64,000 nt of DNA, taken from the NCBI RefSeq assembly GCF_044324875.1, contig NZ_CP172185.1. One strand, 5' to 3'. Each line of letters opens with the position of its first letter. Positions within the stretch are counted from its first letter, which is position 1. This stretch comes from Escherichia coli. GTDB taxonomy: Bacteria; Pseudomonadota; Gammaproteobacteria; Enterobacterales; Enterobacteriaceae. Of the stretch, positions 34,057 to 64,000 are shown in pieces. The position numbers were made by a program, and so were the translations under genes. Under the pieces are notes generated by a model, which saw nothing but the letters and a program-made list of their open reading frames with translations, did not search any database and was not told the DNA's origin.

Positions 34057-34069
34057 CAGGAGTATCACG

Positions 34070-46354: not shown

Positions 46355-46435
46355 ATGCGTGCCCATTCCTGACGGAATGGGCATTTCTGCGCAACTTGTT
46401 GTCTCCTCAACAAATTACTGCTTGCTCTGGTTCGC

Positions 46436-46472
46436 CATAATATTGATAATAAGAATCATTGTTATATCAATT
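46436..46472. promoter_or_regulatory. Fur-box-like AT-rich repeats upstream of ydiE
   Basis: gataataagaatcattgttatatcaattattatt. Confidence 0.4.
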
Positions 46473-46485
46473 ATTATTAATTTTT

Positions 46486-46677
46486 ATGCGTTATACGGAT
46501 AGCAGAAAACTCACGCCTGAAACGGATGCCAATCACAAGACCGCTTCCCCGCAGCCCATCCGGCGAATTACCAGCCAGACACTGTTAGGTCCGGATGGCA
46601 AACTGATTATCGATCATGACGGGCAAGAATATCTGCTCCGTAAAACTCAGGCTGGCAAGCTGCTGTTGACCAAGTAG
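46486..46677 (+). CDS. ydiE: HemP-like small protein
   Basis: 63-aa reading from [10 protein letters not shown] inside the 72-aa ORF. Confidence 0.7.
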
Positions 46678-46680
46678 CCT

Positions 46681-48156
<1,476 letters not shown>

Positions 48157-48179
48157 TTAAACACCAGCAAACAGGAGGG

Positions 48180-48893
48180 TTATCGCTGAACCAACGTCGT
48201 TATCTGATTTATGGGAACGGCAGGCCACAGGCATCCCTGGAGAGCATGGAAATCAAAGGGGGTAATCTGTGCCATTATTTCTAGCGTATCAATGCCCCCC
48301 GCGATGATGCAATTGCAACATGGGGAAATTTGCGCCTGGATCGCACGAATAAACGGTTCGAAGGAGCGATGCGTGATTTGTTGCTGAATAAAACTTTTAT
48401 CCAGCATGACGCGGGTGAAAAGACCATCAAAAACCGCTTTCATTGTGCTATTGCCTGCGCCCAAATTACCTAACACAAGGGGATACATTTGCGATAAGGA
48501 AAAAAGATCGCGATTATCTTTTCCTTCATCGAGATGCGGGTAATTCTCATTAATCAACAGTTCAATAAACGGATATTTTAATAGTTCGCCTGCGTAATTA
48601 TCCCTGTCTAATAATAAAGTAGCCACTTGTGGCGTTAAATTAAGCCAGGCAAAGAGTTTATGTTGAATAAAAAAGTGTTGGCATGATTTTAGTAATTCCA
48701 ACTGCTCTGAAAATAATTGCCAATGTTGCTCCTCGGTAAGTTGCGCTATAACCCGACTCGTCGGGATACGAACCGTACCATCTTCACTGGAGAAATGGGT
48801 AATTAACTCAACGCCGACAAGGTCTTGCTGGTTATCTCTTATCGGCAGGAAATAGCAATCAGAATGATAAAGATTCTCCAAAAAAATCTTCAT
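48180..48893 (-). CDS. ydiV: EAL-like anti-FlhDC factor
   Basis: 237-aa ORF. Confidence 0.85.
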   Translation of the reverse strand: MKIFLENLYHSDCYFLPIRDNQQDLVGVELITHFSSEDGTVRIPTSRVIAQLTEEQHWQLFSEQLELLKSCQHFFIQHKLFAWLNLTPQVATLLLDRDNYAGELLKYPFIELLINENYPHLDEGKDNRDLFSLSQMYPLVLGNLGAGNSTMKAVFDGLFTRVMLDKSFIQQQITHRSFEPFIRAIQAQISPCCNCIIAGGIDTLEIMAQITPFDFHALQGCLWPAVPINQITTLVQR

Positions 48894-49139
48894 GGTAACC
48901 GTCCCTCTCGAAGGATGTTTTTCAGTATCCGGCTAAAAGGGATGAGGCCATAAGACATAACAATTACAGAAGGAGTAACTTTCATTTGTTCCATGTTAAC
49001 CACTTTTTCAGGGGTCCTTTTTTTAGATTATCCTGATTATAAACGAATAATCCATTTACGGAATTTTTGTCTGCAAAATACTACCGTATTCTGGAGTAAA
49101 TTGACGGCGATGTATCATCGCCGTCAATTTTTCGACATA

Positions 49140-49604
49140 CTAGATTCGTCTCGCCTGCCAGAAATTTTTCTGCCAATAGACATTATCAAGTGAGGAACGC
49201 ATCACTCCCTTGCTGGTAGAGGCGTGGATAAATTGGTTGTTGGTATCGTAAATACCTACATGCAAACCATTTTGTCCGGAGCCCGTTTTGAAAAAGACCA
49301 GGTCACCTGGCAGCAACTCGTCTTTATCAATTTGCGTGCCGATAGAGGCTTGTTCTTTAGTTTCTCGGGGCAGCTGCAAATCGAAACGATCGCGCATCGT
49401 CACAACCACAAACCCCGAACAGTCCACACCGCGCCGCGTCATGCCACCATAACGATACGGCGTGCCATGCCAGCTCTGTAGCTGGTCGTTCAAACCGGCA
49501 ATAACGGTAATCGAATCAGAAAGTCTGGCATTTGGCGGCGGTGCTTTATGGTGGCTACACCCGGCCAGAAACAGTGCTGTGATCAAAATAAGGCAGAAAC
49601 GCAT
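49140..49604 (-). CDS. nlpC: NlpC/P60-family lipoprotein
   Basis: 154-aa ORF with lipobox LFLAGC and NlpC/P60 Cys motif. Confidence 0.9.
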   Translation of the reverse strand: MRFCLILITALFLAGCSHHKAPPPNARLSDSITVIAGLNDQLQSWHGTPYRYGGMTRRGVDCSGFVVVTMRDRFDLQLPRETKEQASIGTQIDKDELLPGDLVFFKTGSGQNGLHVGIYDTNNQFIHASTSKGVMRSSLDNVYWQKNFWQARRI

Positions 49605-49681
49605 TCCGTACGGTTCCTCTGTTTTTTATTCTTGCATTAATTTAGCGTCGTAATTACCCGATTTTCAAGATACTAATGAAA

Positions 49682-50431
49682 TCAGATGGTCGAAATCAGC
49701 ATTCTGTGACCTTCGATATCCAGACGGCGAAAATTCATCCCATAGGCCTGCGCCAGATTTGGCGGCGTGAGCACCTCTTCCCTGCGTCCACTGGCCAGCA
49801 TTTTTCCACCTTTTAGCAACCACGCCCGATGCGCATGACGCAATGTATGGTTGAGATCGTGACTGCTCATCACAATCGCCAGTCCTTGCTGACACAGCGC
49901 GCTCAGAATTTTGTCTAATGCACTTTGTTGCGCAACATCAAGACTGTTCATCGGCTCATCAAGAAGCAGCAATTGGCCTGCGGGATTGGCTTGTGGTGTG
50001 ATTTGCAGCACCACCGCAGCAAGACGTACGCGTTGCCATTCGCCGCCGGAAAGTTGATTGGTGCTACGTCCGAGTTTGTCATCAAGAGTCAGCGCCCCTG
50101 CGACATCATTCAGTAGTTCGGTACGCGTTTTATCGTGCTGATGCAGTGTCAGGTAGTGCCAGACCGGCATTGCAAACGGTGGCGTCTGTTGTTGTGAAAG
50201 ATAGGCGCGATGCAGCGCGAGTTTTGTTGCGGACCATGCTTCCAGTGGTTGCCCCGCGAACTGAATGCTTCCCTTACCGCTGGTCATTCCGGCCATTCGC
50301 GCCAGTAAGGTACTCTTACCCGCGCCATTCGGCCCCACCAGGTGCAGGATCTCCCCAGCCCGAACCTCGCCAGAAAGCGGCCCCAGGCGGGTAGACTCCG
50401 CAACATCCTGTAACTGCATCACAATAGACAT
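49682..50431 (-). CDS. btuD: vitamin B12 ABC transporter ATPase
   Basis: Walker [10 protein letters not shown]; 249 aa. Confidence 0.92.
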
Positions 50432-50982
50432 TATTTTGCCAACGCCAGTTTAATGCTTTCCATCACAATGGGATCTTCCGGCGTCATATCCGGGGAAAAA
50501 CGCTGGATGACCAATCCGTCCCTGCCAACTAAAAATTTCTCAAAATTCCATAAGATATCATCAGGGTACAGCGGTGCACGACCTTTGCTGACCATACGGG
50601 CATAGAATCCGCTCTCTTCCGGCGCGACTGCGGTCGGCGCTGCGGCAATCAATTTTTGATACAGCGGATGGCGTCCTTCACCATTAACTTCAATCTTACT
50701 GAACATCGGGAACGTCACCCCCCATGTAGTGGTGCAGTAAGTTTTAATCTCTTCATCGCTGCCCGGTTCTTGCTCCAGAAACTGGTTGCACGGGAATCCC
50801 AGCACCACAAAACCACGATCGGCCCAGGCTTTCTGAATATTCTCCAACTGCTCATATTGCGGCGTTAAGCCACACTTTGAGGCGACATTGACAATCAACA
50901 GCACATTACCGGCGTACTTCTCCAGCGTGGTCACTTCACCGTCGATATCTTTCACTACGGTCGTCAGAATGGAATCTTGCAT
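50431..50982 (-). CDS. btuE: glutathione peroxidase-like BtuE
   Basis: 183-aa ORF. Confidence 0.9.
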
Positions 50983-51044
50983 CGTTTCTCCTGGGTGTGG
51001 TCAGTAAAAATCTTAGCTTTTAATCATAGACCGTCTTTTTGCGG

Positions 51045-52025
51045 CTAACGTCCTGCTTTTAACAATAACCAGATAAACACCGGCGCACCCAACGTTGCGG
51101 TGACCACGCCAATAGGCAGCTCTGCGGCAGCTAATGCCAGGCGCGCTACAACATCGGCCAGCAGCAATGCGCTCGCCCCTGCCAGCGCGCAGCCGGGAAG
51201 TAATACGCGATGATCGGTCAAACCACATAACCGGAGAATATGTGGGATCACCAGACCAATAAAGCCGATAGCACCCGCCAACGCCACACTGACGCCAACC
51301 ATCCAGCCGGTCGCTGCCACCAGCACATTGCGCCAGAACCACAGGGGTAAACCCAGTTGCCGCGCCGAGATCTCGCCAAGTGCTAACATATTCATCGGCC
51401 TGGACTGACAACAGATCCACAACAACACGGGGATCAATGCCAGCATCAGCCAGCTTTGCCGCCAGTCTACGCCGCCAAAACCGCCCATCATCCAGTACAT
51501 CAGCTGACGTAAATCAACAGAGGTGGAAAAGTAGATAGCCCACGTCATTAGTGCGCTACAGATAATCCCTAATGCAACGCCAGCCAGCAATAACCGACTG
51601 GTCGAAAGATGACGACGGGCGAAACGTAAGAGTATTAAAGTGATGATAAGCGCGCCAGCAATCGCACACAGCCCCAGCGCCCAGTTGGGGAGTTGCCCTT
51701 GCCCAAGCAATACAGCGGCGATAAGCCCCACGCCTGCGCCATTAGAGACGCCAAGTAGTCCAGGTTCTGCCAGAGGATTTTCAAATAACGCCTGCATTAC
51801 AGCGCCGGATATAGCCAACGCCGCACCAACCAGCAATACAGCCAGCGTACGTGGCAGGCGAATCTGCCAGACGAACAGTTCGCCTCGAGGAGAAAACCAG
51901 TCACCTGGCGAGATCCATTGTTCACCGGCGCAAAGGCTTAAGAGAAGCGCCAGCAGCATCAAAACTGACAGGCATAATAACCAGCGAATATTTTGTCGCT
52001 GTTGTTGGCGGGCAAGTGTCAGCAT
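51045..52025 (-). CDS. btuC: vitamin B12 ABC transporter permease
   Basis: 326-aa polytopic ORF. Confidence 0.92.
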
Positions 52026-52080
52026 GGTATCCGTTCTGCTGAAGTGTCATGGCGTTGATTTTACGGTGACTCTTCGACAG

Positions 52081-52108
52081 TGAAAAGAAAAAAGGCCGCA
52101 GAGCGGCC
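52081..52108 (-). terminator. rho-independent terminator (minus strand) between prophage gene 52215..52610 and btuC
   Basis: Minus strand reads ggccgc tct gcggcc followed by ttttttcttttc. Confidence 0.55.
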
Positions 52109-52214
52109 ATAATTGCAATCAAAAATCAATAATTTAAATACTTATCAATCACTTAAGAACACATTAAAATACAAGCAACCACGCAAAACGACGTGAATGT
52201 GGTCACTTTGTGGA

Positions 52215-52610
52215 TCATTCGTCCCCTTCTTTCTCTTTGTTCTGTTGAACGCTAATTGCGACACACGTAGCAATCAAATCTTTACATTTCTCCATATCTT
52301 CTGTCTTGCGCAACTTGATGCTTGCCACCGATTGTGGATTATCCGCTGTGGCACAATGCATTGTTATTTCAATGTCGTTTCGATGAAAGAGTCCCATAAT
52401 AGCTTTTGCAACCTCCGTCCCTTTTTCCGCGATATCAAAGATCAAAGCAAGTTTATACAAAATATCACCAGAAAAACACTCAACCCTGCTAAGACCAACA
52501 TCACATAATGAAAAATATTGCTCAACGTCCCCCTGGAGTTCGGGAGCACACACAATATCTATTTTTCCGTACTGGCCTGAATAAAAGTCACTATTAACTG
52601 TTTTTTTCAC
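52215..52610 (-). CDS. hypothetical protein coupled to the 3' end of int (unknown function)
   Basis: GTG at 52610 preceded by a perfect AAGGAGG SD; start overlaps the int stop by 17 nt (track ORF begins at an upstream TTG, 52631). Visibly AT-rich relative to flanks. Confidence 0.6.
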   Translation of the reverse strand: MKKTVNSDFYSGQYGKIDIVCAPELQGDVEQYFSLCDVGLSRVECFSGDILYKLALIFDIAEKGTEVAKAIMGLFHRNDIEITMHCATADNPQSVASIKLRKTEDMEKCKDLIATCVAISVQQNKEKEGDE

Positions 52611-53595
52611 AACATCCTCCTTCTTCAGCAATTGGATTAAACCTCACCGCATCCTGCAAATAATCCGGTGCAAGATGGGCATAAATCATCGTTGTCTGAA
52701 TCTTTGCGTGCCCCAGAATTTTCTGGAGCGTCAGAATATTGCCGCCGTTCATCATGAAATGACTGGCGAAAGTGTGGCGCAGCGCGTGAACGGCCTGCCC
52801 GTCAGGAATGGAAGGGGCAACCGCTTTTATCGAATCGCGCACCAGTGAATAATCCAGCGCCGGAAATACCAGCTTTCCGCCCCGTTTTTTAATTTTGTCA
52901 AACAGGCTTTCAGAAATTGGAACAGTCCGGTTTTTACTGTTTTTGGTTCTGGAAAATGTGATCCGGGAATGCAGAACGCGGCGCTGTTCAAGTGCCACCA
53001 CCTCACCCCATCGCGCCCCGGTAGATAAAAGAATTTCAGTAGCTAGCCGTTCGTCGGGATGCTCTACCAGAACGTCAAGCAGCTGGAGGCACTCCTGCCT
53101 GTTCAGATACCCCATTTCGCGCTCGCTGACCTTCATCCCTTTCAGTCCGCTAACAGGGTTATCATTCTGGAAGTGACCGGATGAGATGAGTGCGGAAAAC
53201 ATCGCGCTAAGCGCACCAACCTCGCGGTTTATGGTACTTGGCTGAATCCCCTCCTCCGCTCTTGCCACGCGTAATTCCGTTAACGTGGTGGCGTTGACGT
53301 TGTTAACACGCGGATCCCCCATCGCTTCACACACGCGCTGTAATTTGAGGCGTGTGTTCCACCCCGATTTCATCAGTTGCCCGTGAAACTTCCACCATAA
53401 TTCGATAAGTTCGGACAACGAACGGCGATCGGTCGGCGCACTGTTCCATGCGTTATTTTGGTGTTGAGCTAAAACCCAGCGTTCGAACTGGATAGCCTCC
53501 GACTTTGTTTTGAACTTTTTACGAATGCGTTTACCTTTGCGCCCATCAGGACGCATATCAACCATGTAGCCACCAGGGATTGATTTTATGCTCAT
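52594..53595 (-). CDS. int: tyrosine-type site-specific integrase (P2-like)
   Basis: C-terminal HALRHTFASHF...LGHAKIQTTMIYAHL catalytic region; start set at MSIKSIPGGY. Confidence 0.9.
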   Translation of the reverse strand: MSIKSIPGGYMVDMRPDGRKGKRIRKKFKTKSEAIQFERWVLAQHQNNAWNSAPTDRRSLSELIELWWKFHGQLMKSGWNTRLKLQRVCEAMGDPRVNNVNATTLTELRVARAEEGIQPSTINREVGALSAMFSALISSGHFQNDNPVSGLKGMKVSEREMGYLNRQECLQLLDVLVEHPDERLATEILLSTGARWGEVVALEQRRVLHSRITFSRTKNSKNRTVPISESLFDKIKKRGGKLVFPALDYSLVRDSIKAVAPSIPDGQAVHALRHTFASHFMMNGGNILTLQKILGHAKIQTTMIYAHLAPDYLQDAVRFNPIAEEGGCCEKNS

Positions 53596-53644
53596 TGGCA
53601 TACCCCCAGCGTCACAAGCCCACCGTGCCCCCAGCGTTCCATAA

Positions 53645-53953
53645 TCAGCCGTGCAGTGTGCCAGTCTTGCGGACTTTTTGAGAAGGTGATGTGCTTTCTG
53701 GCCCATCAGGGGAGAGAGTCGGGCTGATCTGCCCAGCAGCCTCGTTTGTTTTTCCCGTCATGAGCCAATTCATGTACTTAAAAAAACGAGGATGATTAAC
53801 AATCTTGACGAGAGCTTCGCCGCCGACATTCTCAATCCGACCTGTCTCATAACGGCGTAGAGTACCGATAGGTACATCAATCAGTTCACAAAACTCTTCA
53901 CGCGTTAACCCTTCCGACTCACGAATTACTCTGATTTTTTCACCAATAAACAT
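53645..53953 (-). CDS. P2 C-type immunity repressor
   Basis: 102-aa HTH protein immediately upstream of and co-oriented with int, divergent from the early operon. Confidence 0.7.
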   Translation of the reverse strand: MFIGEKIRVIRESEGLTREEFCELIDVPIGTLRRYETGRIENVGGEALVKIVNHPRFFKYMNWLMTGKTNEAAGQISPTLSPDGPESTSPSQKVRKTGTLHG

Positions 53954-53975
53954 TGACAGTGTTCCTATCAGTACA

Positions 53976-54018
53976 GTATTCTTGATTTCAAGGTGTACTT
54001 ATAAGTACACAAGAATAC
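53976..54018. promoter_or_regulatory. operator/promoter region between repressor and early operon
   Basis: Perfect 18-bp palindrome GTGTACTTATAAGTACAC (53993..54010) flanked by gtattcttg / caagaatac; TTGACA at 53954..53959. Confidence 0.6.
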
Positions 54019-54050
54019 AAATAGCCACAGACTGGAAAGGTTACCACATC

Positions 54051-54329
54051 ATGACAAAAGTCTTGAACACATACGGGGAGACGGACTTCAACAAGCTGGC
54101 GGCAATGTACCCCTACCGTGATGAGCATGGACTGCCAGTTCTTGAGGAAAGCCTTGAGGACTACGCCAAACGAACCAATCAAGCCCTGAACACTGTTAAA
54201 AAACAGGTCGACAGAGCGCAGATCCCTATAAATCAGCATAAAAAAGGCGGGAAACGCACAGTAAATCTCTACGCAATTTTTCTGAAAACCATCATAAACG
54301 CAGAGAAATATGTACTCATGACGAAATAA
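54051..54329 (+). CDS. first early-operon gene in the Cox/Apl position (putative small DNA-binding regulator)
   Basis: 92-aa ORF from the ATG at 54051 with ggaaagg RBS; function by position only. Confidence 0.5.
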   Translation: MTKVLNTYGETDFNKLAAMYPYRDEHGLPVLEESLEDYAKRTNQALNTVKKQVDRAQIPINQHKKGGKRTVNLYAIFLKTIINAEKYVLMTK

Positions 54330-54359
54330 CTATTTTCCGCAAATAACGAGGGCAACAAC

Positions 54360-54575
54360 ATGACCCCAAGACAAAAATTAACTACCAGCAATAATGATGT
54401 ATTAATCTGTTCAAATAAACACGTAGTGGCTGCAACAAAGGTCGGCTCATTAATCACTATTCACTTTGCTAATTTCAGCCTGGAGATACAGACCAATAAC
54501 GAGGGAGAAGCCGCAGCATACATGAATGTATTGAAAAACTCCCTGCGAGAAAAAAGAAACACCGAGGTGCAATAA
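54360..54575 (+). CDS. hypothetical early protein
   Basis: 71-aa ORF with acgaggg RBS. Confidence 0.5.
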   Translation: MTPRQKLTTSNNDVLICSNKHVVAATKVGSLITIHFANFSLEIQTNNEGEAAAYMNVLKNSLREKRNTEVQ

Positions 54576-54883
54576 TGCGAAAACATTATTCACAACCATA
54601 TATCCGTAACAGTGCGCCACGCAGCAATAACCGCTGGAGCCTGCGCGAAACACACGCAACACCGGGCGGTCACGTTGTAAAACAAACTGGCGAACACACC
54701 TGGCTGATTGAGCAGGCTGGACTCGTGATCCACAGATGTAACCGCAATCCGTTTACCGGAAACCGCATCTTTGCGCTGAGCAGCGGCGACAACCAGTTCG
54801 GGCAGGATTTCACGCTACACGAAGCCCTGCGAACTGCCGACCGCTTAATTGCGGGGCGCAGCTTTCAGCACCCGGATTATTAA
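54575..54883 (+). CDS. hypothetical early protein
   Basis: 102-aa ORF whose ATG overlaps the previous stop. Confidence 0.5.
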   Translation: MRKHYSQPYIRNSAPRSNNRWSLRETHATPGGHVVKQTGEHTWLIEQAGLVIHRCNRNPFTGNRIFALSSGDNQFGQDFTLHEALRTADRLIAGRSFQHPDY

Positions 54884-54937
54884 AAGTCGGCTTAATAAGC
54901 CGTGAACCAGTCTTAATAAGACATGAGAGGCGATAAG

Positions 54938-55180
54938 ATGAAAAGAGCCTACAAAGAAATCGCTAACGACATACTTCAGAATTATCACCTAACCCTTGCA
55001 AACGAGGGTGTCGCCTATGATGAGCAATCGTTCCGCGCAATGCAGGGTGGGATTCTTGGGCTGTATATCGCCGCCACAGCCAGCGGCGACCTCGAAGCGC
55101 TGGCAGAATTAAAGGTTATCTATCCGAAAGAACTTGGCGAAGACCTGATTAAACCCTATCTCATTGAGGAGCTGGCATGA
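54938..55180 (+). CDS. hypothetical early protein
   Basis: Start at second ATG (MKRAYKEIAND) with gagagg RBS; longer ORF from 54923 possible. Confidence 0.5.
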   Translation: MKRAYKEIANDILQNYHLTLANEGVAYDEQSFRAMQGGILGLYIAATASGDLEALAELKVIYPKELGEDLIKPYLIEELA

Positions 55181-55302
55181 ATATTCTTATCTCGTGGTTA
55201 ATTCTCATCCTCGCCATTATTTGCGCGGTGGGAATCATGCGAATTATTAACGGCATTAAAACCATCGAATCATTATTTACTGGCGACAAGCGCCATAAAT
55301 AA
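55177..55302 (+). CDS. 41-aa hydrophobic micro-protein
   Basis: ATGA overlap with the preceding stop; MNILISWLILILAIICAVGIMRIINGIKTIESLFTGDKRHK; not in the ORF track (below length cut-off). Confidence 0.4.
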   Translation: MNILISWLILILAIICAVGIMRIINGIKTIESLFTGDKRHK

Positions 55303-55382
55303 ATAACCGGAAATTACCAGAAAGCAAGAAAACATCCGCAACGGCGGAGGGATTCCCTTACGCCTGAAATAAGGAGCAGCGA

Positions 55383-55598
55383 ATGAGTAAACCACTAACC
55401 AGCATTGAGCGAAAAATTGTTTTTATGAATGTGGCAGGCGTGCAGTTCGAAGTGGATAAGCAGGTCATCGTCTCCGAAACGAGATGCCCGGCAGCAGGTG
55501 AGCAATGCACCTACCTGACACTGGCAGACGGCACGCAAATAACCGCCGTCACCGACACCATTCGCGAGCTTGTGATTATCAGAGGGGTTAAACGATGA
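55383..55598 (+). CDS. hypothetical early protein
   Basis: 71-aa ORF with aaggag RBS. Confidence 0.55.
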   Translation: MSKPLTSIERKIVFMNVAGVQFEVDKQVIVSETRCPAAGEQCTYLTLADGTQITAVTDTIRELVIIRGVKR

Positions 55599-55807
55599 CC
55601 AGCAAATACACCACCAACGCACGCAAGCCAGGCAAGGAGGCACGTCATCACATTGCCGTTCTGCGCAATCTCATCATGTGCGAAATCGACGACTTTGTGG
55701 CGGGACTGGGCCAGCCGGGCGAGCCAGCAACACCGGGCGAAATACACAAAGAACTACGCCGCCGCATAGAAAGCGCGGTGGATTACGTCATGAACCCGAA
55801 CGACTGA
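55595..55807 (+). CDS. hypothetical early protein
   Basis: 70-aa ORF, ATGA overlap with previous gene. Confidence 0.5.
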   Translation: MTSKYTTNARKPGKEARHHIAVLRNLIMCEIDDFVAGLGQPGEPATPGEIHKELRRRIESAVDYVMNPND

Positions 55808-55847
55808 CCAGAACGCGAGCGCGCGCCGGATGACGCACGCATAACGC

Positions 55848-56333
55848 TTAGCGGGAAGCGCCAACCGTAAGGCTGGCAATGATTTTTTCGGAGAGTGAGA
55901 GAGATTCGCGATGATTAAGACCAAGAGCAGCACAAGCTTTATTGCGCGCCGGGTTGTCCATGCATTCAAGCACCGGAGAGTCCTGCTTCTCAATTTCCAC
56001 CAGTCGCGCCAGCAACACCTCCGTGCTGAGACCGTCGCTTTCAGTAATCAGGACGTTATAGCGATGAGCCTGTTCTTTTGCAGCCTGAGCGCGTCGCCCA
56101 AATTTCCAGGCGATATTGCAGCCACTAAGCACAGCCACGATACCACCCAGCAACCAACTGAAATTGCTGTCTGCAAACACAGTAGCCCCAGACGTAAGGA
56201 TGACAGCATTAATCACCGTATCCATACGGCGGTTAAACACCTCCGAAATATGTTCAAGCCAGTAACTGTTCCAGAGACGAAACATGACCTCGTGTCGCCG
56301 TTCGGCATGATTTTCAGTTGGTTGTCTGTTCAT
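55848..56333 (-). CDS. 2-TM hairpin membrane protein encoded antisense to the early operon
   Basis: 161-aa ORF with AGGAGGG SD 10 nt upstream of the ATG; two adjacent hydrophobic helices (TVINAVILTSGATVFA / WLLGGIVAVLSGCNIAW) flanked by charged helices. Confidence 0.6.
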   Translation of the reverse strand: MNRQPTENHAERRHEVMFRLWNSYWLEHISEVFNRRMDTVINAVILTSGATVFADSNFSWLLGGIVAVLSGCNIAWKFGRRAQAAKEQAHRYNVLITESDGLSTEVLLARLVEIEKQDSPVLECMDNPARNKACAALGLNHRESLSLSEKIIASLTVGASR

Positions 56334-56576
56334 TGCGGTTTAACCCTCCTCATCATCTCGCCCCTGCCCTTTTTCAGGCGCGGGAGCCGGTTGCCGTGGC
56401 ACATGAAATTTATCGCTATCAGACATTTATTTTTTCCCGTGTGTTGTTGAACAAAGTGCCCGCACAGTTTTGACGGAACGGCGGGCGCTTCAAGCGTAAC
56501 ACACCCTTCTTTTCCGGTTGAAGGCGAAAAAAACCGGACAGCTACCCGACACAAACCAGACCAGCGGAGAACTGCC

Positions 56577-57131
56577 ATGTACGCACTTAAACCTATGGGG
56601 ATACCAGGCAAAGCCCCGGCGCATGTGAAAGCCTGGACACAGCAGGAAGATGATTTGCTGATCACCCTGTACCCGCAGCACACAGCACGAGATATCGCCG
56701 GGCGTCTGGGGCGCAGCCACGAAGGCGTGAAGAGCCGCATTTGTCGTCTGCGTGAACAGGGCAGGATTGGCATCAAGCAGCAAAGACTAAGCGATGAGAT
56801 GATCGCCACGCTCATCAGGAACCGCCACACCAGGTCCCTCAAGGAACTGGCACACATGGCGAAAGTTTCGACACGCACGGTAACCAACCGATTGAGGGCG
56901 CTGGGCTACAGCCTGATCAAATGCGGGGATCTGCATAAAAACACCGTCTACAGCGACCGCATCGTTGAGATTATCAGACAGTTACACGACGAGCAGGGCC
57001 TGACGTTCAGGGAAATCGCACAGCGCCTTAGCCACGAACTACAGCCGAACCCTACCCCGACACTGGCTCAACGTCTCTACTGGCGGTGCACAGCATCCGA
57101 CGCCGTATTCCGTGAACTGTTACCAGATTGA
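56577..57131 (+). CDS. DNA-binding protein with three tandem HTH (Myb/SANT-like) repeats
   Basis: 184-aa ORF with ggaga RBS; three ~45-aa repeats each containing an HTH-like segment. Confidence 0.55.
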   Translation: MYALKPMGIPGKAPAHVKAWTQQEDDLLITLYPQHTARDIAGRLGRSHEGVKSRICRLREQGRIGIKQQRLSDEMIATLIRNRHTRSLKELAHMAKVSTRTVTNRLRALGYSLIKCGDLHKNTVYSDRIVEIIRQLHDEQGLTFREIAQRLSHELQPNPTPTLAQRLYWRCTASDAVFRELLPD

Positions 57132-57454
57132 GCAATCACCATGTACACACAAAAAAACCGCTTGCAACAACAAACCGGAACAGGGTACGCTTCCCCCGCA
57201 CCTCATAAAGCGGGTGCCGGGTTTCGCAGCCTGCTGACTAGCAAAGCGCACAACCGCGCCAGCGGTTTTTTTGTGCGTACTGTATTGCCACGTCTTTTTC
57301 GCATCAGAATTATGGTGGGGCGTACGGGGCCGACTTCGGTCGGGCCGGTTTCTTCGTTTGCCGGTGTTGAGAACCCCGTACGTCTCGCCACCCCGAGATT
57401 CTCAACTCTGGTTGGTGAGTATCCAAAAACTCACAAACGAAGAGGCCAAACACC

Positions 57455-57673
57455 ATGGCAAACCGCAAACAGCGCCGCGCTATCGCTGCGCAGCGTCACA
57501 TCCAGACCGAAATCAACCGCAGACTCTTCCGCGCCCACAACATCGCGCGAATCATGCACGCCAACATGCTGCATGAACGCAGTAACGCGTTATCAAACCT
57601 CTATTCCGCTTCCGTTTTCAGCTATCTGGCGGACGACCTGCGCGAGCTGCAAGACCTCATTAACCAGCACTGA
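57455..57673 (+). CDS. hypothetical protein
   Basis: 72-aa ORF with aagagg RBS. Confidence 0.5.
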   Translation: MANRKQRRAIAAQRHIQTEINRRLFRAHNIARIMHANMLHERSNALSNLYSASVFSYLADDLRELQDLINQH

Positions 57674-57745
57674 TAAACAACCCGAAGCCATCCTGCGCCC
57701 GTTCGCGGGAGGCTTCCGCACATCTGTAGTCGGGAGGATTGCGCC

Positions 57746-58114
57746 ATGATTCTGGCTGACGATTTTCTGGAGTACCTGAACAACACCGAGCGCGACCTGT
57801 ACGCGCGCGTTCTCACCCGTTACGAGAAATACAAACTTTCGCTGCCAGAACATCAACTCCGCGAAGGCGATATCGACATTGAAGGGCGCTACATCGTCAG
57901 GCACCTCATAGCGGGCTACGGCATCTGGCGTGTCACCGGACGTGAGCATTCATTGCTGACCATCTGCCAGAGTCCGTCCGGCGTGATAACGGAGATCGTC
58001 GCTGATAGTCTGCGACTCACCCATCACAGCGCCACCCCGGAAGAAACGCTGGCAGAAACCCAGCGTCTGTGTCGCGTCATTGCCAACGCCGCCCTCCGCG
58101 CAGACAGGAGGTAA
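57746..58114 (+). CDS. hypothetical protein immediately upstream of gene A
   Basis: 122-aa ORF with gggagg RBS; 3-nt gap to the A start. Confidence 0.55.
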   Translation: MILADDFLEYLNNTERDLYARVLTRYEKYKLSLPEHQLREGDIDIEGRYIVRHLIAGYGIWRVTGREHSLLTICQSPSGVITEIVADSLRLTHHSATPEETLAETQRLCRVIANAALRADRR

Positions 58115-58117
58115 GCG

Positions 58118-60292
58118 ATGGAGTTCGTCAGAGACTGGCAAAAACCGCGCCCCGCTATCGGGCGCGAAGGCTTACCCGTACCTGAAACCGCACTGGATAC
58201 CATCCTGAAGTGTTACCGCGCGGACGAAGAGCGCGCCCTGAACGCTGAAGAGCAGGGTCATCCGCTTGCGGGCACAACCATCGGTAACGCGATCGACAAG
58301 TGGGAAGGCGCACAGGAGCGCCAGGAAGAGGCCATCACGCTCACACAGGAAGCGAAGAGACGCCCACCCACCCTCATTGAGGAAACCCTCAAAGAGCTGG
58401 ACACCCTGCCAAAGTGGTTGAGGCTGCCACTGATTAAGTACCTGAACTTCTTAAGGCGCAAACAGGAGGACGAACAGCAGAAAGGCAAGCGCGGCAAGGA
58501 CACCCGCAAATATGAGCGCTTCCTGAAAAACGGCATCCCCGCACGTCTTCGCCGTATTCGTGAGATTAACGCTCGCTTTGCACCGTTAAGTTTTCAGGCC
58601 GCTGCCATGCGCGAGAGTCTGGAAGAGTTAATCACACTGCCGAACCTGAGCCGTGAACGCATCCAGAAAATAGCCGTACTGCTTGCCAGCGCCGTTAAAA
58701 TGCATCTTGCCGACGCAATGGACAAGGCCCGCGAAATAACAGGGAACGACAAAGACGACAACCTGAACAACTGGCTGATTGCCTACCAGTATATTGGTCG
58801 CCGTGTCCTGAAGCTGGGGATCACCCCACCATACTGGAGCGCCCTTGAACTCCGTCCCGACCGCAGAAGCCCCCCGGACCTGACACTGGTACCGGGCGCT
58901 GTTTTGCGCCTGAACGACGCCGAATGGTGGAATAAAAAACTTCGCCAGATGCACGACGTCTGGCGTGAGGAACTTTTACGTGCAGCGGGCCTTGTATCCC
59001 GCCAGACCTCCATTTATGTGAGCCGGGAAGCGCTGGCAGACTTCCGCGAGAAACAGGCCCGTACCCGCGATTTTCTCAAAGCGCACGACGTGGAGAACGA
59101 AGACGGCGAACGCATCAGCCTGGAAGATATCTACTACGCCAGTACATCCAACCCGCATAACCGCCGCAACGAGATGATGGCGTGCGTCAAGGGAATGGAG
59201 CTTATCGCACAGGAACGTGGCGACGTGGCCTTCTTCGTCACGGTCACAGCCCCGTCTCGTTTTCACAGCGTCACCGACGCCGGTACCCTTAACCCGAAAT
59301 ACAAAGGCACAACAGTAAAAGACGCCAGCGACTATCTGGTTTATAACTTCTTCGCCTCCGCCCGCAAACTCATCAAAAAAGAGAAGCGGGGCTGGTACGG
59401 CATTCGCACCGTGGAGCCTCACCACGACGGCACGCCCCACTGGCACATGCTGGTATTCACAAGCCCCGAGAACGAAGCGCGCATCACGGAAATCATGTGC
59501 AATGCCGCCATCCGTGAAGACCGTGCAGAGCTGGGCGACGACATTACCCCGCGCTTCAAGTGCGAGAAGATAGACCCCGAAAAAGGTACGCCAACCAGCT
59601 ACATCGCCACCTACATCGGCAAAGGCATTGACGCCGCCGCATTCGGCGACACGGATCCCAAAACAGGCAAACCGCCCGTTGACCACGAAAGCGGAAAACC
59701 TATGGCGGACACCGTGGAAAACGCCGTCGCCTGGGCACGCCTGCATCGCATTCGCCAGTTCCAGTTCTTTGGCCTTCCCTCACGTCAGGTGTGGCGCGAG
59801 TTCCGCCGCCTTGCCGGACAAATGGCACGCAACCCGAAGGGGCCGCAGGCACTGACCAACCCCAAAGCCGACGCCCTCCTTGTTGCAGCCGATACGGGGT
59901 GTTTTGCCAGCTACATCATGCATCAGGGCGGTGTGCTCATTCCCCGCAGTGAATATCTGGCCCGCACGGCCTACGTCACCGCAGAAGAGCCGAACAACTA
60001 CGGCGAGTTCCCCGACCGTATTTACGGTGTACGGATGCCGGAACTGGGCGATGAGTTCACGTTATGTACCCACCCGGAAGAGTGGAAAATCGTCAGAAAG
60101 GAACCGGAACCAGACAACCGCACGGGCGAGGGTTTTGACCTTCAGGGCGACCCCGTCGCCCCTTGGACTCGTGGCAATAACTGTCACCCTGACGAAAAAA
60201 ACAACCAACAACAGCACACAAACAGAACAGTCAGAGTGGGCAAAACTGCCCCCCTTACCCCCATCGTCGGACGGTTTTGTGAGCTGGTTTAA
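58118..60292 (+). CDS. replication initiation endonuclease (P2 gpA / 186 A family, rolling-circle)
   Basis: 724-aa ORF with caggagg RBS; HDGTPHWHMLVF metal-binding motif and YIATYIGKG active-site tyrosine region. Confidence 0.85.
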   Translation: MEFVRDWQKPRPAIGREGLPVPETALDTILKCYRADEERALNAEEQGHPLAGTTIGNAIDKWEGAQERQEEAITLTQEAKRRPPTLIEETLKELDTLPKWLRLPLIKYLNFLRRKQEDEQQKGKRGKDTRKYERFLKNGIPARLRRIREINARFAPLSFQAAAMRESLEELITLPNLSRERIQKIAVLLASAVKMHLADAMDKAREITGNDKDDNLNNWLIAYQYIGRRVLKLGITPPYWSALELRPDRRSPPDLTLVPGAVLRLNDAEWWNKKLRQMHDVWREELLRAAGLVSRQTSIYVSREALADFREKQARTRDFLKAHDVENEDGERISLEDIYYASTSNPHNRRNEMMACVKGMELIAQERGDVAFFVTVTAPSRFHSVTDAGTLNPKYKGTTVKDASDYLVYNFFASARKLIKKEKRGWYGIRTVEPHHDGTPHWHMLVFTSPENEARITEIMCNAAIREDRAELGDDITPRFKCEKIDPEKGTPTSYIATYIGKGIDAAAFGDTDPKTGKPPVDHESGKPMADTVENAVAWARLHRIRQFQFFGLPSRQVWREFRRLAGQMARNPKGPQALTNPKADALLVAADTGCFASYIMHQGGVLIPRSEYLARTAYVTAEEPNNYGEFPDRIYGVRMPELGDEFTLCTHPEEWKIVRKEPEPDNRTGEGFDLQGDPVAPWTRGNNCHPDEKNNQQQHTNRTVRVGKTAPLTPIVGRFCELV

Positions 60293-60608
60293 GTCGCTTA
60301 AGAGGCCGGACAGGAAAAAACTACAAAGATTGCTCAAAAAACGCACCGAAGAGAGTCGCCAGAACGCCAGCGGCGGCACCGACACACCCACCGACACCAT
60401 TAACCTGGGCGTTGTGCTGCCGGAACTGCCGGAAATCGTGCAAGTCCGCCGCGATCTGGAAGCGCTGGGCGCGGACTTCCCCGAAGCAATGGCCCATTCC
60501 GTCTTTATGGGTGCCCGCGTTCGTCTGGGTGACGGTCGCACCGTTCACCGCGACGAGCAGACCGGGCGCATCACCGTCACCAGTCTGCAACCGGAGGCGA
60601 AACCATGA
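60279..60608 (+). CDS. possible small protein coupled to the A stop (start uncertain)
   Basis: In-frame GTG at 60279 overlapping the A stop; C-terminal part looks coding and ends in an ATGA overlap with the next gene. The upstream part of track ORF 59880..60608 lies inside A in another frame. Confidence 0.35.
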   Translation: MSWFKSLKRPDRKKLQRLLKKRTEESRQNASGGTDTPTDTINLGVVLPELPEIVQVRRDLEALGADFPEAMAHSVFMGARVRLGDGRTVHRDEQTGRITVTSLQPEAKP

Positions 60609-61015
60609 ACCGTTATCATTGTGTACTGCCGCGCCACTACTTCGGTCAGATTATGCGCTCGCGTATTCCGGCGGTCACGCTGCGAAACCTGAGCACGGTA
60701 CCGCAGCCGGGCGATGAGCTGGAAATCGCCGTAGCAGGCCCTGACCGTTCAGCCAGCTGCGTGACCGCCGACGTGCTGAACGCCGTGCCCGTAGGTGGTG
60801 ACTGGCTGGTTGCCATCCGCTTCCGCCAAGACCCGTTCGCACCTGAACCGCTCACCCCCGCAGGCCGCATCATGCAGAACTGGCGGGATGAAGGCGCGAA
60901 GGCGAACTGCGAAAAACTGATTAACAGGATTGCCACGACAAACCGACATGCCGCGCTGGCGCGCCGGATATACCCCGCAAAATCAACACAACCAACAGGA
61001 GTAAAAGGCCCATGA
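60605..61015 (+). CDS. ASCH/PUA-like domain protein
   Basis: 136-aa ORF; N-terminal pattern YHCVLPRHYFGQIMRSRIPAVTLRN...GDELEI resembles ASCH domains. Confidence 0.5.
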   Translation: MNRYHCVLPRHYFGQIMRSRIPAVTLRNLSTVPQPGDELEIAVAGPDRSASCVTADVLNAVPVGGDWLVAIRFRQDPFAPEPLTPAGRIMQNWRDEGAKANCEKLINRIATTNRHAALARRIYPAKSTQPTGVKGP

Positions 61016-61278
61016 AAAGAATCGCCGGAACTGACTACCAGGAGCTGCTTAAAGCGGTGGAAAACTACCGTTCAGCGCTGGTGTGGTGTGAGATTAAGCC
61101 CTGTGACCCGGGAGCAGTTAAGGATTGCAACCGGGCGCGTGAGGACATTCAGCGCGTAATTGGCTACCGCTATGTAGCAGCCATTATTGACCTTGTGAAT
61201 GAACTGGAGGAAGCAAAAGAGCGCATCGCAGAACTGGAAACCCAGAATAACCCCAACCAGCAGGAGCAGAAGCCATGA
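61012..61278 (+). CDS. hypothetical protein
   Basis: 88-aa ORF, ATGA overlap on both sides. Confidence 0.5.
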   Translation: MKRIAGTDYQELLKAVENYRSALVWCEIKPCDPGAVKDCNRAREDIQRVIGYRYVAAIIDLVNELEEAKERIAELETQNNPNQQEQKP

Positions 61279-61856
61279 AAAAAAGAGACCTTAAAAAACA
61301 CCTCCGTAGTCAGATTGAATATTTTGAAGATAAGGCTGCAAAAACAGGGCTTTCCGGTAAAGAGAACATGAACTTCAGGGCACACCTCCTGACGTGGAGA
61401 ATACTTAATATCACGAGAGATGGACTTGAGCCGCTAGCCTACCTGATGGAAGATGGCGAGACCCTCATACAGGATCCCAATGTGGAAATGGAGAAGAAAG
61501 AGATGGACCTGCCGATAATCGGGCTGTTTGAGATCCCTGAACTAATAGGACGTTATGAACACGAAAACCGCCAGCTTGCCGCCTTTTTATCCGTGACAAT
61601 CGAACGACTGGAAGCCGTGAAACACGATATTCCGTTCGGTTTTGATGAGCGCACCGAGGGTGATTTGCTCAGCTTTCAGATTGCCCTGAACGTGCTCACC
61701 GCAGAGCCTTCTGCGTGGCTACGCCCGGAACGGCACCACAACACGTTCGCATTTACCGTAATTCCCTACGATGCCGCACAGGAAGAGGATAACTTCGAGA
61801 CCAGGCTTGTTCCCCTGTATCAGATTGCGGATTTCTATACGTTGATTCGCTGGTAA
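61275..61856 (+). CDS. hypothetical protein, last gene of the coupled block
   Basis: 193-aa ORF followed by a strong terminator. Confidence 0.55.
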   Translation: MKKRDLKKHLRSQIEYFEDKAAKTGLSGKENMNFRAHLLTWRILNITRDGLEPLAYLMEDGETLIQDPNVEMEKKEMDLPIIGLFEIPELIGRYEHENRQLAAFLSVTIERLEAVKHDIPFGFDERTEGDLLSFQIALNVLTAEPSAWLRPERHHNTFAFTVIPYDAAQEEDNFETRLVPLYQIADFYTLIRW

Positions 61857-61870
61857 TCCCCCACAGTAAA

Positions 61871-61895
61871 ACAGCCCGACCGGGCTGTTTTTTTA
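61871..61895 (+). terminator. rho-independent terminator ending the early/replication operon
   Basis: acagcccg ac cgggctgt followed by ttttttt. Confidence 0.8.
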
Positions 61896-61951
61896 TCTGA
61901 TATTTTTGATAACGTTGACCGGCTCATTAGCAAAAAAGCAAAGAGGAAAAC

Positions 61952-62338
61952 ATGAAAGCCCGTATCGGGATCATCCCGGAAAAAGCCCTGCGCCAGCACC
62001 TGATTGATATTGCCAGAGGGAAGCGAAAACCACAGCCCGACGAGCCAAAGGTATGGTTTTCATCCATCAATGCGGCAGGCCAGACGCTGAGCAATGAAAA
62101 TATCGCCCTTCTGCGTCTTATGAATGAGGAGAAGCCGCAGACCATGACCGCACTTGCGGAGTTATCCGGCAGAAAACTGAGCAACCTGTCTGTAACCCTG
62201 AAAATGCTGAGCAGCTACGGTTTTGTCAGTCTGGAAAAGAAAGGGAATACTGTACACCCGAAAGCACTTTTTACCGATTTTGAAATCATCGTTGATCCGT
62301 CCGTGGGTTCAGTACATCGCGCCACCGCCCGGCCCTGA
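61952..62338 (+). CDS. putative winged-helix transcriptional regulator
   Basis: 128-aa ORF with aagagga RBS; HTH-like segment MTALAELSGRKLSNLSVTLKMLSSYGFVS. Confidence 0.55.
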   Translation: MKARIGIIPEKALRQHLIDIARGKRKPQPDEPKVWFSSINAAGQTLSNENIALLRLMNEEKPQTMTALAELSGRKLSNLSVTLKMLSSYGFVSLEKKGNTVHPKALFTDFEIIVDPSVGSVHRATARP

Positions 62339-62350
62339 AGTGCGCAATAA

Positions 62351-62375
62351 ACAGCCCCGTTCGGGGCTGTTATTT
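62351..62375. terminator. bidirectional terminator between convergent genes
   Basis: acagcccc gttc ggggctgt with T-rich flanks on both strands. Confidence 0.7.
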
Positions 62376-62748
62376 ATTCCAGAATCAGCTGTTCAGGTGT
62401 GCAGCCGTACAGTCTGGCAAGGCGCTCAATATTTGCCCTGCGCGGGCGTTCCGTTCTTTCGAATTCGGACACGGTAGCCTGCCTGATACCCAGCGCATCC
62501 GCCACCTGCTTTTGCGTCATTCCGCGATAGATTCGCCACGCCGCCTGCATTGTGCAGCCACGCTCCGAGAGAATGTTAACCACCTCGTTGGGATACAGCG
62601 TATCAGGCGATGCACACGGTTCGTTCTGGACGTCCTCGTAGAGTTCGTCAAGGTCGCTGTCTCCTGCCAGTTTTTCAAACAACGCCACTGGCAGAATGAC
62701 GGACACCCTGTTACCCGCACCGTCAGTAATAAACTGAATCTGACTCAT
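62374..62748 (-). CDS. HigA-like antitoxin (XRE-family HTH at C-terminus)
   Basis: 124-aa ORF with aggaggg RBS; C-terminal MTQKQVADALGIRQATVSEFERT HTH. Confidence 0.65.
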   Translation of the reverse strand: MSQIQFITDGAGNRVSVILPVALFEKLAGDSDLDELYEDVQNEPCASPDTLYPNEVVNILSERGCTMQAAWRIYRGMTQKQVADALGIRQATVSEFERTERPRRANIERLARLYGCTPEQLILE

Positions 62749-62802
62749 TTACCCCTCCTGCTAAACATCGGTTTATTTTTTAATTTGCTGCCGGTGATAA
62801 AA

Positions 62803-62821
62803 AACGGCGGGTCGCCCCGCC
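62803..62821 (-). terminator. intrinsic-terminator-like hairpin between toxin and antitoxin ORFs
   Basis: Minus strand reads taa-ggcggg gcga cccgcc-GTTTTTT immediately after the toxin stop. Confidence 0.5.
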
Positions 62822-63073
62822 TTAGTATGTTGTCGAGGTTCTCCGCTGAATACGGAGGATCCTGATAACCACTATCTGCCCTCCCTCAATCGTGAACCTG
62901 ACACGGTAATGATTTACCCTGAGTCTGTACTCCCCGCCCGAGTCAGTGAGCTTTTTAATATCCAGATTCTGGAACTTCGGATAGCCATAAAGCGCGTTAA
63001 CTTTCTCGCGTAAGGATTTCTGATCCCTCGCTGGCAAAACCCGTAAATCTTTGATTGCCCGAGGGGTCCACAT
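62822..63073 (-). CDS. RelE/ParE-superfamily toxin (HigB-like)
   Basis: ...KKLTDSGGEYRLRVNHYRVRFTIEGGQIVVIRILRIQRR pattern; start may be 63073 (MWTPRAIKDL) or 63094. Confidence 0.65.
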   Translation of the reverse strand: MWTPRAIKDLRVLPARDQKSLREKVNALYGYPKFQNLDIKKLTDSGGEYRLRVNHYRVRFTIEGGQIVVIRILRIQRRTSTTY

Positions 63074-63139
63074 GATTTCAGTCGTCATAAACACACCGGA
63101 AGCAAATTATTAAAGAGCCGTGCCCGCTGGCACACCTTA

Positions 63140-63183
63140 AATATAGGTTTTAACCCCTATATTGTCAAACAAAATCCCTATAT
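63140..63183. promoter_or_regulatory. repeat cluster upstream of the toxin gene, putative operator
   Basis: Inverted repeat AATATAGG-n8-CCTATATT plus a third CCCTATAT copy 13 bp further. Confidence 0.45.
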
Positions 63184-63677
63184 CATGAAGTAAAAAAGCA
63201 CCTCCCGCGACCTCCCTTTCCGGTGCACGAAAGTGCACAAATTTGCACAATTTTTTTGAACGACTTTTTGCCCTTCCGGCCCGTGTGGCGTCTGGATCCG
63301 TCGGGGATCCGTGCGTGCACGAAAAAAGGCCTTTTTCTGCGCGCAGGTGACGGGGGAACAGCCCGCGTTTCAGGGGGTAAATAGCATTCCCTGAACGATG
63401 TTGCAGTGACACAACAGAATGGCTGTATTTCTCACGCTGAGCGTGAAAAAGACGTAAGGGCTTTTGATTTGATGGGGTGAAAGATAAGGCCGTCAAAATC
63501 GCACTGAGGCAGCGAGAATATGTCGTCAGAGTTGCGGGGTTGCGTAAGCATCCGCCCGGCGATGATGGCTACAGGGCTGGAGATGTTGTGAAATTATCTG
63601 AAGGAATAACCAGCTTGCAGGAGAACCCGGGCAAAGTCAGAATAGCGGCAGGCATCAACTCAAAAGAGGATAATGTC

Positions 63678-64000
63678 ATGAGCCACTTTAATGATTTATG
63701 CCAGATCAATCGTGAAGCTGAAGAAAAACGCGCTGAGGCAGCTCAAATTTTGCGGGATGAAGCGGCAAGGCTGATTGATTTCTATGAAGAATGGCTGGGG
63801 CTTCCATCCATGTACTGGGAAGACGATGATGGCGACCTGCACCGCTACGTGGAGACAGGCTTGCCATGTAAGACAGCGGCGGATTTTAGTCCTCTTTCAG
63901 TCCACAATATCGCATCTGCACCAGACAATATTTTCCGCATGGCCGTGCGAACCTGGGTTAAGTCATCTGACAGCAGCTACCCGGTAAGCGTGGTTATTGC
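63678..64000 (+). CDS. hypothetical protein, 5' part only (runs off window end)
   Basis: ATG at 63678 with aaagagga RBS; frame open to 64000. Not in the ORF track because no stop is reached; in-frame GTG/TTG alternatives up to 63477. Confidence 0.5.
   Translation, partial: MSHFNDLCQINREAEEKRAEAAQILRDEAARLIDFYEEWLGLPSMYWEDDDGDLHRYVETGLPCKTAADFSPLSVHNIASAPDNIFRMAVRTWVKSSDSSYPVSVVI

Follow-up and report, generated by a model that had tools for sequence, protein, structure and literature searches.

Host junction and attachment core

This analysis concerns a 64,000-nucleotide stretch of Escherichia coli DNA (assembly GCF_044324875.1, contig NZ_CP172185.1; the whole stretch is called the window) and the foreign segment that runs from beside btuC to its end, i.e., very probably one arm of a P2-family prophage. 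A preliminary description of the window had placed a P2/186-family prophage arm where ihfA would be expected to adjoin btuC, and this placement is supported by the results below, in which the integrase (Int), the repressor C and the replication protein A were found to be phage-related by PHROG, Pfam, Protein Data Bank (PDB) and tblastn comparisons. The features at the host end are listed by window position; aa denotes amino acids, ORF an open reading frame, and E an expectation value.

51045..52025, minus strand: btuC, the last host gene ahead of the prophage (ORF list; 98% collinear K-12 match; btuC annotation in relatives).
52084..52108, no strand assigned: attL crossover core, 25 bp, AAAGAAAAAAGGCCGCAGAGCGGCC (four-sequence alignment, terminator scan, empty-site genomes).
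52124..52136 and 52143..52155, plus strand: two perfect consensus sites for integration host factor (IHF) in the int-proximal att arm (pattern search; putative binding sites).
52198..52217, plus strand: two direct Int arm-type repeats, TGTGGTCA and TGTGGATCA (sequence and pattern search; putative binding sites).
52594..53583, minus strand: P2-type tyrosine integrase, 329 aa (PHROG 1, E 1.7e-73).

When the whole window was compared with K-12 MG1655 by local BLAST, a single collinear alignment was obtained, 1..52108 at 98% identity, which ended at 52108; the sequence 52109..64000 is foreign to K-12. The K-12 gene beyond btuC is ihfA, 100 bp off. No ihfA-like frame was found among the window ORFs in 52026..52214, a stretch made up of btuC leader, att core and phage arm. 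The window was aligned with the uninterrupted K-12 btuC-ihfA spacer and with both prophage ends of 23CRST011 (NZ_AP045770.1), the best relative among 5,426 complete E. coli genomes (90% of the arm covered at 99.2% identity), and a 25-bp core was common to the K-12 attB site, the window attL and both 23CRST011 ends. Read on the minus strand, this core corresponds to the rho-independent terminator of ihfA, GGCCGCTCTGCGGCC with a T-run behind it, and was scored as an intrinsic terminator in the terminator scan; in K-12 the core starts 22 bp past the ihfA stop codon.

The breakpoint was also located with a 161-nt junction probe (probe position 69 = base 52108) compared by megablast with the 5,426 complete genomes. 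The probe match ended at position 69 in the empty-site genomes, and the junction continued into the phage arm in 301 of the 5,426 (about 5.5%). No transfer RNA (tRNA) gene was present when the integration site was checked for one. Both the attachment site and the core length are already known, from the P2-like prophage PP_SE11-4 of E. coli SE11, which lies between btuC and ihfA with a 25-nt duplication (Oshima et al. 2008, PMC2608844).

Two close lysogens, 23CRST011 and isolate F374, show the other side of the insertion: the gene order is btuC, attL, a 36-37 kb prophage, attR, intact ihfA, pheT, pheS, with the second core copy about 37 kb from the first and the ihfA protein identical in the two (WP_001229265.1), whole, and encoded beside that far-end core. 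On the btuC side, the 58 bp of leader from the core to the start codon stay with btuC, including a promoter-like site at 52086..52058. The core lies 22 bp beyond the stop codon and contains the whole hairpin; therefore ihfA is displaced, by about 37 kb, and almost certainly not broken, as is seen directly in the relatives and as we infer for the far end of the source genome. The gene keeps its terminator because the core holds the entire hairpin, which is regenerated at both junctions. The Rfam STnc540 model reaches from the 3' end of ihfA through the terminator into the btuC leader and scores 67 bits in K-12 (L003 5154..5312); this region is split by the prophage, scoring 29 bits at attL (window 52026..52147, minus strand) and 43 bits at attR of the relative L014.

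As regards the host side, the preliminary description was right that the K-12 order holds up to btuC and that 52026..52214 lacks an IHF-alpha-like frame. The comparison with an uninterrupted btuC-ihfA reference that it proposed gave the shared core and the end of homology described above, and the direct repeat that it anticipated at the far prophage end was seen in the two close relatives, the far end of the source genome lying outside the window. It had further held that the integration site could not be resolved from the window, which is corrected here, the core being visible and defined to the base by alignment. Its similar statement on the fate of ihfA holds insofar as the far end lies beyond the window, but not for displacement, which follows from the position of the core and from the two relatives.

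The IHF consensus WATCAANNNNTTR has seven matches in the 64 kb, compared with 2.8 expected, and two of the seven fall in the att arm. The repeats TGTGGTCA and TGTGGATCA fit the P2-type Int arm consensus tgTGGaCa (Nilsson and colleagues, PMC3448106) and lie about 100 bp from the core, the same distance as in the P2 P' arm; TTGTGGATCA was found again in the other att arm of a relative. By tblastn, the Int of the arm shares 45% identity with P2 Int (over 315 aa), compared with 42% for the P88 enzyme and 39% for that of 186.

Immunity switch

53645..53953, minus strand: P2 C-type immunity repressor, 102 aa (PHROG 147, E 4.5e-31).
53953..54010, plus strand: candidate early promoter Pe (TTGACA, 18 nt, TATTCT) with two operator copies (promoter scan, repeat search).
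54051..54329, plus strand: first early gene, Cox-like, 92 aa (PHROG 11533, E 1.5e-47).

The repressor is 38.5% identical to P2 C (tblastn) and over its full length matches the solved P2 C structure (PDB 2XCJ/2L49, E 3.8e-15); its gene is transcribed toward int and faces the early operon, into which Pe points. Operator O2 (53993..54010) reads GTGTACTTATAAGTACAC, an 18-bp palindrome without mismatches. The other copy, O1, is degenerate and lies at 53959..53975 within the Pe spacer, and the spacing of O1 and O2 is 34 bp. In WΦ, too, O1 lies inside the Pe spacer and the operators are spaced by 34 nt (PMC1904263). Relatives with the same 102-aa C protein keep both operator copies; relatives with a different C have both operators swapped jointly for another repeat at unchanged positions. 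That both copies change together with the C type supports an operator function for them, in which they would be bound by the repressor.

The 92-aa protein has a weak match to PHROG 575, "Cox-like excisionase and repressor" (E 2e-6), and its position and size fit that assignment. Two segments, 53752..54247 (C N-terminus, operators and Cox-like gene) and 54871..55174 (DUF4754 gene), differ from the otherwise 99%-identical 23CRST011 and match other lysogens (L009, L010), so that immunity types are mosaic among these elements; since its immunity segment (53752..54247) departs from that of the relative that is nearest elsewhere, the phage itself is a mosaic.

The isrK/C4 antisense-RNA module

57198..57272, plus strand: isrK-like RNA with intrinsic terminator (Rfam RF01394, 64.7 bits, gathering score 50).
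57223..57229 (a1, TTCGCAG) and 57239..57246 (b1, TAGCAAAG), plus strand: C4 upstream target pair (comparison of relatives).
57308..57395, plus strand: C4-type antisense RNA (Rfam RF01695, 79.2 bits, gathering score 45).
57349..57360 (b' loop) and 57366..57373 (single-stranded a'), plus strand: C4 elements (Rfam model).
57399..57406 (a2, TTCTCAAC) and 57434..57445 (b2, CAAACGAAGAGG), plus strand: C4 downstream targets (complementarity).
57455..57673, plus strand: epsilon-like "derepression protein", 72 aa (Pfam PF25738 Derepression, E 2.1e-8; name given to it in relatives by the NCBI annotation pipeline, PGAP).

Two RNAs identified with Rfam, isrK and C4, lie in the 320-bp gap ahead of the 72-aa gene at 57455. 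The b' hairpin loop UUUCUUCGUUUG is complementary to CAAACGAAGA (57434..57443) over 10 Watson-Crick nt, a stretch that runs into AGAGG, the Shine-Dalgarno sequence of the 57455 gene, which is covered by b2; the single-stranded a' element GUUGAGAA is complementary to a2 over 8 Watson-Crick nt. The 72-aa product is 80% identical to P88 gp14 (tblastn) and belongs to the Pfam "Derepression" family, which we take to be that of the P4 epsilon protein. Both RNAs also occur at the corresponding position in phage P88, and neither was found when P2 and 186 were checked for them. Among the 5,426 complete E. coli genomes, 1,121 have the module. The C4 and isrK families themselves have been described before (Weinberg et al. 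2010).

The pairing was compared across 29 haplotypes, drawn from the window, its relatives and 120 viral contigs in which the invariant portion of C4 is present. These haplotypes have five a' variants and 14 b' variants, and in every one the resident C4 can pair with the targets downstream of it: the longest Watson-Crick runs average 7 nt (a) and 8.6 nt (b), compared with 4.4 and 4.7 nt after C4 RNAs and targets were permuted among haplotypes. The upstream pair of the window does not follow this pattern. Its a1 and b1 elements have longest runs of just 3 and 4 nt with the resident C4, i.e., no match, and correspond to another specificity, ACTGCGAA/GTTCTTTGCTAG. In the other haplotypes checked a1/b1 match the resident C4, the sole other clear mismatch being in the viral contig L015; an automated parse had flagged 41 contigs as mismatched, and on manual reading these were regular-expression failures, leaving the window and L015. 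This hybrid a1/b1-C4 arrangement was not found among the 5,426 complete genomes, where the best match is 96.9% identical, a value consistent with the ten substitutions in the a1/b1 patch relative to 23CRST011. The mismatch may represent a short gene-conversion patch, or it may be an artefact of assembly or polishing.

A broader proposal, which we offer tentatively and regard as rather doubtful in its entirety, is that P2-family phages of the P88 type possess a second layer of immunity, based on RNA (isrK, C4, epsilon-like anti-repressor, gene A) of combinatorial specificity, with at least five a' and 14 b' variants and all four targets covarying, and that the window copy is a rare recombinant with a foreign isrK/a1b1 segment. 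Work on IsrK of Gifsy-1 suggested a decoy role for isrK (PMC4825925). If the isrK-type RNA acts as such an anti-antisense decoy, the prophage may be locked, unable to lift its own C4 block, or could instead derepress a heterologous co-resident prophage. A further C4 variant, in the IMG/VR contig L126 (about 244..340), has an extra hairpin and a second, different b' loop (ATTCTTTGCTCT, GTTCTTGTGTAG), and looks like two fused specificities.

Gene A and the replication origin

58118..60608, plus strand: gene A, rolling-circle replication endonuclease, GpA (PHROG 91, E 7.7e-216).
60158..60184, plus strand: ori-like sequence within gene A (alignment with the annotated P2 (29892) and 186 origins).

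GpA, with its frame repaired, matches Pfam Phage_GPA (PF05840, E 1.9e-100), and by tblastn it is 51% identical to the A protein of P88, 37% to that of 186 and 31% to that of P2. The HUH (PHWHMLVF) and YxxxY (YIATY) motifs are both present. The ori-like sequence has 22 of its 27 bases in common with the P2 origin, and CAATAACTGT is invariant among P2, 186 and the window; by analogy with P2, the GpA nick is predicted between 60164 and 60165.

About 30 bp past the origin the frame is shifted by +1 through one extra A in the run 60195..60201 (A7 here, A6 in 23CRST011), which replaces the last approximately 137 GpA residues by 32 out-of-frame residues. Judged by match lengths, eight other close relatives also have one base fewer here. 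The extra A is either a homopolymer sequencing error or a genuine defect. Programmed frameshifting at A7 is an unlikely explanation: a +1 shift would be required to enter the frame beyond the run, and every relative is in frame with A6.

Most of the arm features named in the preliminary description hold up with changes. The integrase and the C-type repressor were correctly recognized, although the 370-aa frame assigned to the former was too long (relatives annotate 329 aa); the operator palindrome is real and perfect over 18 bp, and it is one of two copies 34 bp apart, not a single site. The rolling-circle A protein was likewise borne out, but its frame is not intact. As to the label "P2/186", the P2 part stands, on the similarity of the repressor to P2 C in sequence and structure, and the 186 part does not, as described below.

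Interpretation of the locus

We consider it highly probable that 52084..64000 is the int-proximal arm, from attL to cos, of a P2-family prophage of about 36-37 kb that is integrated in the ihfA terminator and has displaced ihfA. A P2-type integrase would have recombined attP with the 25-bp chromosomal core, i.e., the ihfA terminator hairpin in the ihfA-btuC interval. Because the core is duplicated on integration, no host gene would have been broken; ihfA on one side and the btuC leader with its candidate promoter on the other would each keep a complete terminator and its flanks. Lysogeny would then be kept by the P2 C-type repressor acting on the two operator copies that bracket the early promoter, and the transcript of C, int and the cargo gene would run into the attL copy of the ihfA terminator. 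In the lytic phase, the Cox-like protein and an RNA-gated distal operon (isrK/C4, then the epsilon-like derepression protein, then A) would come into play, and GpA would nick the origin within its own gene. Relatives 99% identical over the arm carry the full P2 late-gene set (Q P O N M L ... FI FII T D ogr).

Several points weigh against this reading. The window takes in the arm alone, and the source genome's attR, ihfA and late genes are beyond view; none of the 5,426 complete genomes has an exact copy of the prophage; the Cox assignment is weak, the 92-aa protein having no match among solved structures, including Cox; and the +1 frameshift in gene A may mean a prophage unable to replicate, or a sequencing error.

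The last point leads to the strongest alternative, that the element is a defective or cryptic remnant in which gene A has been inactivated and other parts have perhaps been lost. The frameshift, set against nine close relatives that are all in frame, and the upstream C4 target pair that mismatches the element's own C4 RNA, both favour decay. We nevertheless think a remnant unlikely: the shift lies past the GPA domain, the catalytic motifs and the origin, a one-base homopolymer difference is typical of sequencing error, and the remaining 8.8 kb are 99.5% identical to an apparently complete prophage.

Far less probable is that the insertion disrupts ihfA or its expression. The window indeed has no ihfA frame after btuC, and the STnc540 region is split, with 29 bits remaining here of the 67 in K-12, but the position of the core past the stop codon, the regeneration of the hairpin at both junctions, and the intact, identical ihfA protein in two lysogens of the same phage type leave this explanation highly improbable. 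Slighter still is the chance of a 186-type (Eganvirus) prophage or a P4-like satellite instead of a P2-type helper, suggested by a GpA slightly nearer to that of 186 than to that of P2 and by the resemblance of the isrK/C4 and epsilon-like module to the immunity region of satellite P4; it is refuted for the visible arm by a repressor that matches the P2 C structure, by tblastn of all arm proteins, in which only Int and A matched 186 and nothing matched its cI, apl, cII, fil, dhr or tum genes, by integration between genes and not in a tRNA, by relatives of 36-37 kb with full P2 capsid and tail genes, and by GpA as the replication protein, with no P4-type replication protein among the PHROG annotations of the region.

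The P2-family prophage is, on this evidence, a routine, strain-specific insertion at a published site, and it accounts for the absence of ihfA after btuC in the window. For annotation, the junction is fixed to the single base, a disruption flag is not warranted for ihfA or btuC, and gene A is a possible pseudogene. The element belongs, as a mosaic, to a well-known kind; if any part of it is worth more work, it is the RNA module with the upstream element that mismatches it. The module, widespread and diversified in specificity, may be of interest for prophage cross-talk and for P2/P4 derepression.

Accessory genes and the cos region

52215..52610, minus strand: 131-aa cargo gene in the int-attL slot (PHROG 14142, E 2.9e-52).
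54360..55807, plus strand: small early ORFs (PHROGs 2492, 2549, 4144; relative annotations).
54575..54883, plus strand: DUF4761 homolog (78% identical to the P88 DUF4761 protein).
54935..55180, plus strand: DUF4754 homolog (relative annotations).
55848..56333, minus strand: 161-aa protein of the early-region insert (PHROG 6315; weak membrane-protein family match).
56577..57131, plus strand: 184-aa helix-turn-helix (HTH) protein of the early-region insert (PHROG search; insert: PHROG 6315 and PHROG 323).
60605..61856, plus strand: three overlapping unknown ORFs, A-cos cargo (PHROG matches).
61952..62338, plus strand: HVO_A0114-type winged-HTH gene (PGAP names in a relative).
62374..62748 and 62822..63094, minus strand: HTH antitoxin and RelE toxin pair (PGAP names in a relative).
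63224..63601, plus strand: conserved cos-proximal segment shared with P88-like phages (nucleotide matches).

Cargo hotspots of P2-like phages have been placed at att-int, int-GpA and GpA-portal (bioRxiv preprint, 10.64898/2026.02.27.708500), and accessory genes occupy three positions of the arm that match them, the early-region insert being the int-GpA one. The 131-aa gene has a GTG start behind AAGGAGG and a 17-nt overlap with the int stop, and is probably co-transcribed with C and int in the lysogenic transcript. Its family is very rare (12 representatives among 1.84 billion proteins), and its homologs occupy the same int-att slot of P2-like phages. The AlphaFold model (mean confidence score, pLDDT, 69) combines a ferredoxin-like domain of generic type with a long helix, and Foldseek against the PDB gave non-significant ferredoxin-like (PII/ACT) matches alone, with E above 5e-3.

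The 161-aa and 184-aa genes (55848..57131) interrupt the early operon, separating its small ORFs from the isrK/C4 module. The three overlapping ORFs beyond gene A appear translationally coupled to A, and in relatives a DUF6516 gene replaces two of them. Ten cargo and accessory proteins were searched with PADLOC, and no significant defence model was found, only weak generic HTH matches. NCBIfam gave generic recombinase, HTH and below-cut-off RelE matches only (RelE_StbE TIGR02385 at 22.6 bits, under the curated cut-off of 27.9). The 131-aa protein had no match in Pfam, NCBIfam or PADLOC; Pfam gave nothing for the 193-aa cargo protein either, and just a weak ATP-synt_I match for the 161-aa protein, which is PHROG 6315.

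The cos-proximal segment matches P88 until just ahead of the portal gene, and it matches the start of the phage 500465-2 record. Compared with P2 cosL, only the flank is similar (CTGCGCGC..GACGG), and cos is placed here as a region and not as a site. At the other prophage end, relatives have a HicA/HicB toxin-antitoxin pair between ogr and attR, beside ihfA (L002 8852..9452; L014 38227..38827). The tape-measure gene that PGAP gives as an incomplete pseudogene in two relatives (L014 29779..33336; L001, about 46024..49600) is an intact 1185-aa ORF; the "pseudogene" is an annotation artefact and not decay.

Comparison with known phages and systems

PP_SE11-4 and the 301 RefSeq E. coli lysogens are alike with the window prophage in being P2-like, in using the btuC/ihfA site with its 25-nt duplication, and in a length of about 36 kb; they differ in the int-attL cargo gene, in the type of C and operators, and in the mosaic of cargo between A and cos.

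The closest sequenced phages by nucleotide are P88 and its relatives, yet only about 14% of the arm is matched, at about 80% identity. Genera are demarcated by the virus taxonomy committee ICTV at about 70% nucleotide identity genome-wide. Membership in Xuanwuvirus is to be viewed with this 14% match to P88 in mind, the usually conserved late region lying beyond the window. Escherichia phage P88 (Xuanwuvirus, Peduoviridae) has the same early gene order, with orf122 50% identical, and likewise has isrK and C4 upstream of the derepression gene, with the protein identities given above for DUF4761, the derepression protein and GpA. In contrast, its C and Int are just 36% and 42% identical, and past gene A it has ParM and partition genes where the window phage has unknown ORFs and the RelE pair.

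With P2 and WΦ (Peduovirus), the prophage shares a C protein homologous over its full length to that of P2, an Int at 45% identity, P2-type arm repeats, and the core-to-arm distance of about 100 bp; with WΦ it shares two operators 34 bp apart and O1 in the Pe spacer. The operator half-sites of P2 and WΦ are described as non-palindromic direct repeats, whereas the window operator copies are each a near-perfect palindrome. No homolog of P2 gene B was detected in the window phage, and, unlike P2 and WΦ, it has a cargo gene between int and the arm sites and an RNA-controlled second operon ahead of A. The phage, with a switch of the P2/WΦ kind and an early region resembling that of P88, is not 186-like.

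The RNA module has its counterparts in the immI region of P1/P7 (c4 RNA, icd-ant) and in the P4 CI RNA with epsilon, where two single-stranded elements also pair with upstream and downstream targets; in these and in Gifsy-1, as here, an anti-repressor-type gene has its ribosome-binding site covered by the downstream pair, and the Gifsy-1 IsrK-AnrP system (PMC4825925) has in common an isrK-type RNA with a leaky terminator upstream. The window module differs from those of P1/P7, P4 and Gifsy-1 in that it lies inside a P2-family helper-type phage, directly upstream of gene A, in that the controlled protein is a short, epsilon-like one of 72 aa, and in that its a1/b1 elements mismatch the resident C4.

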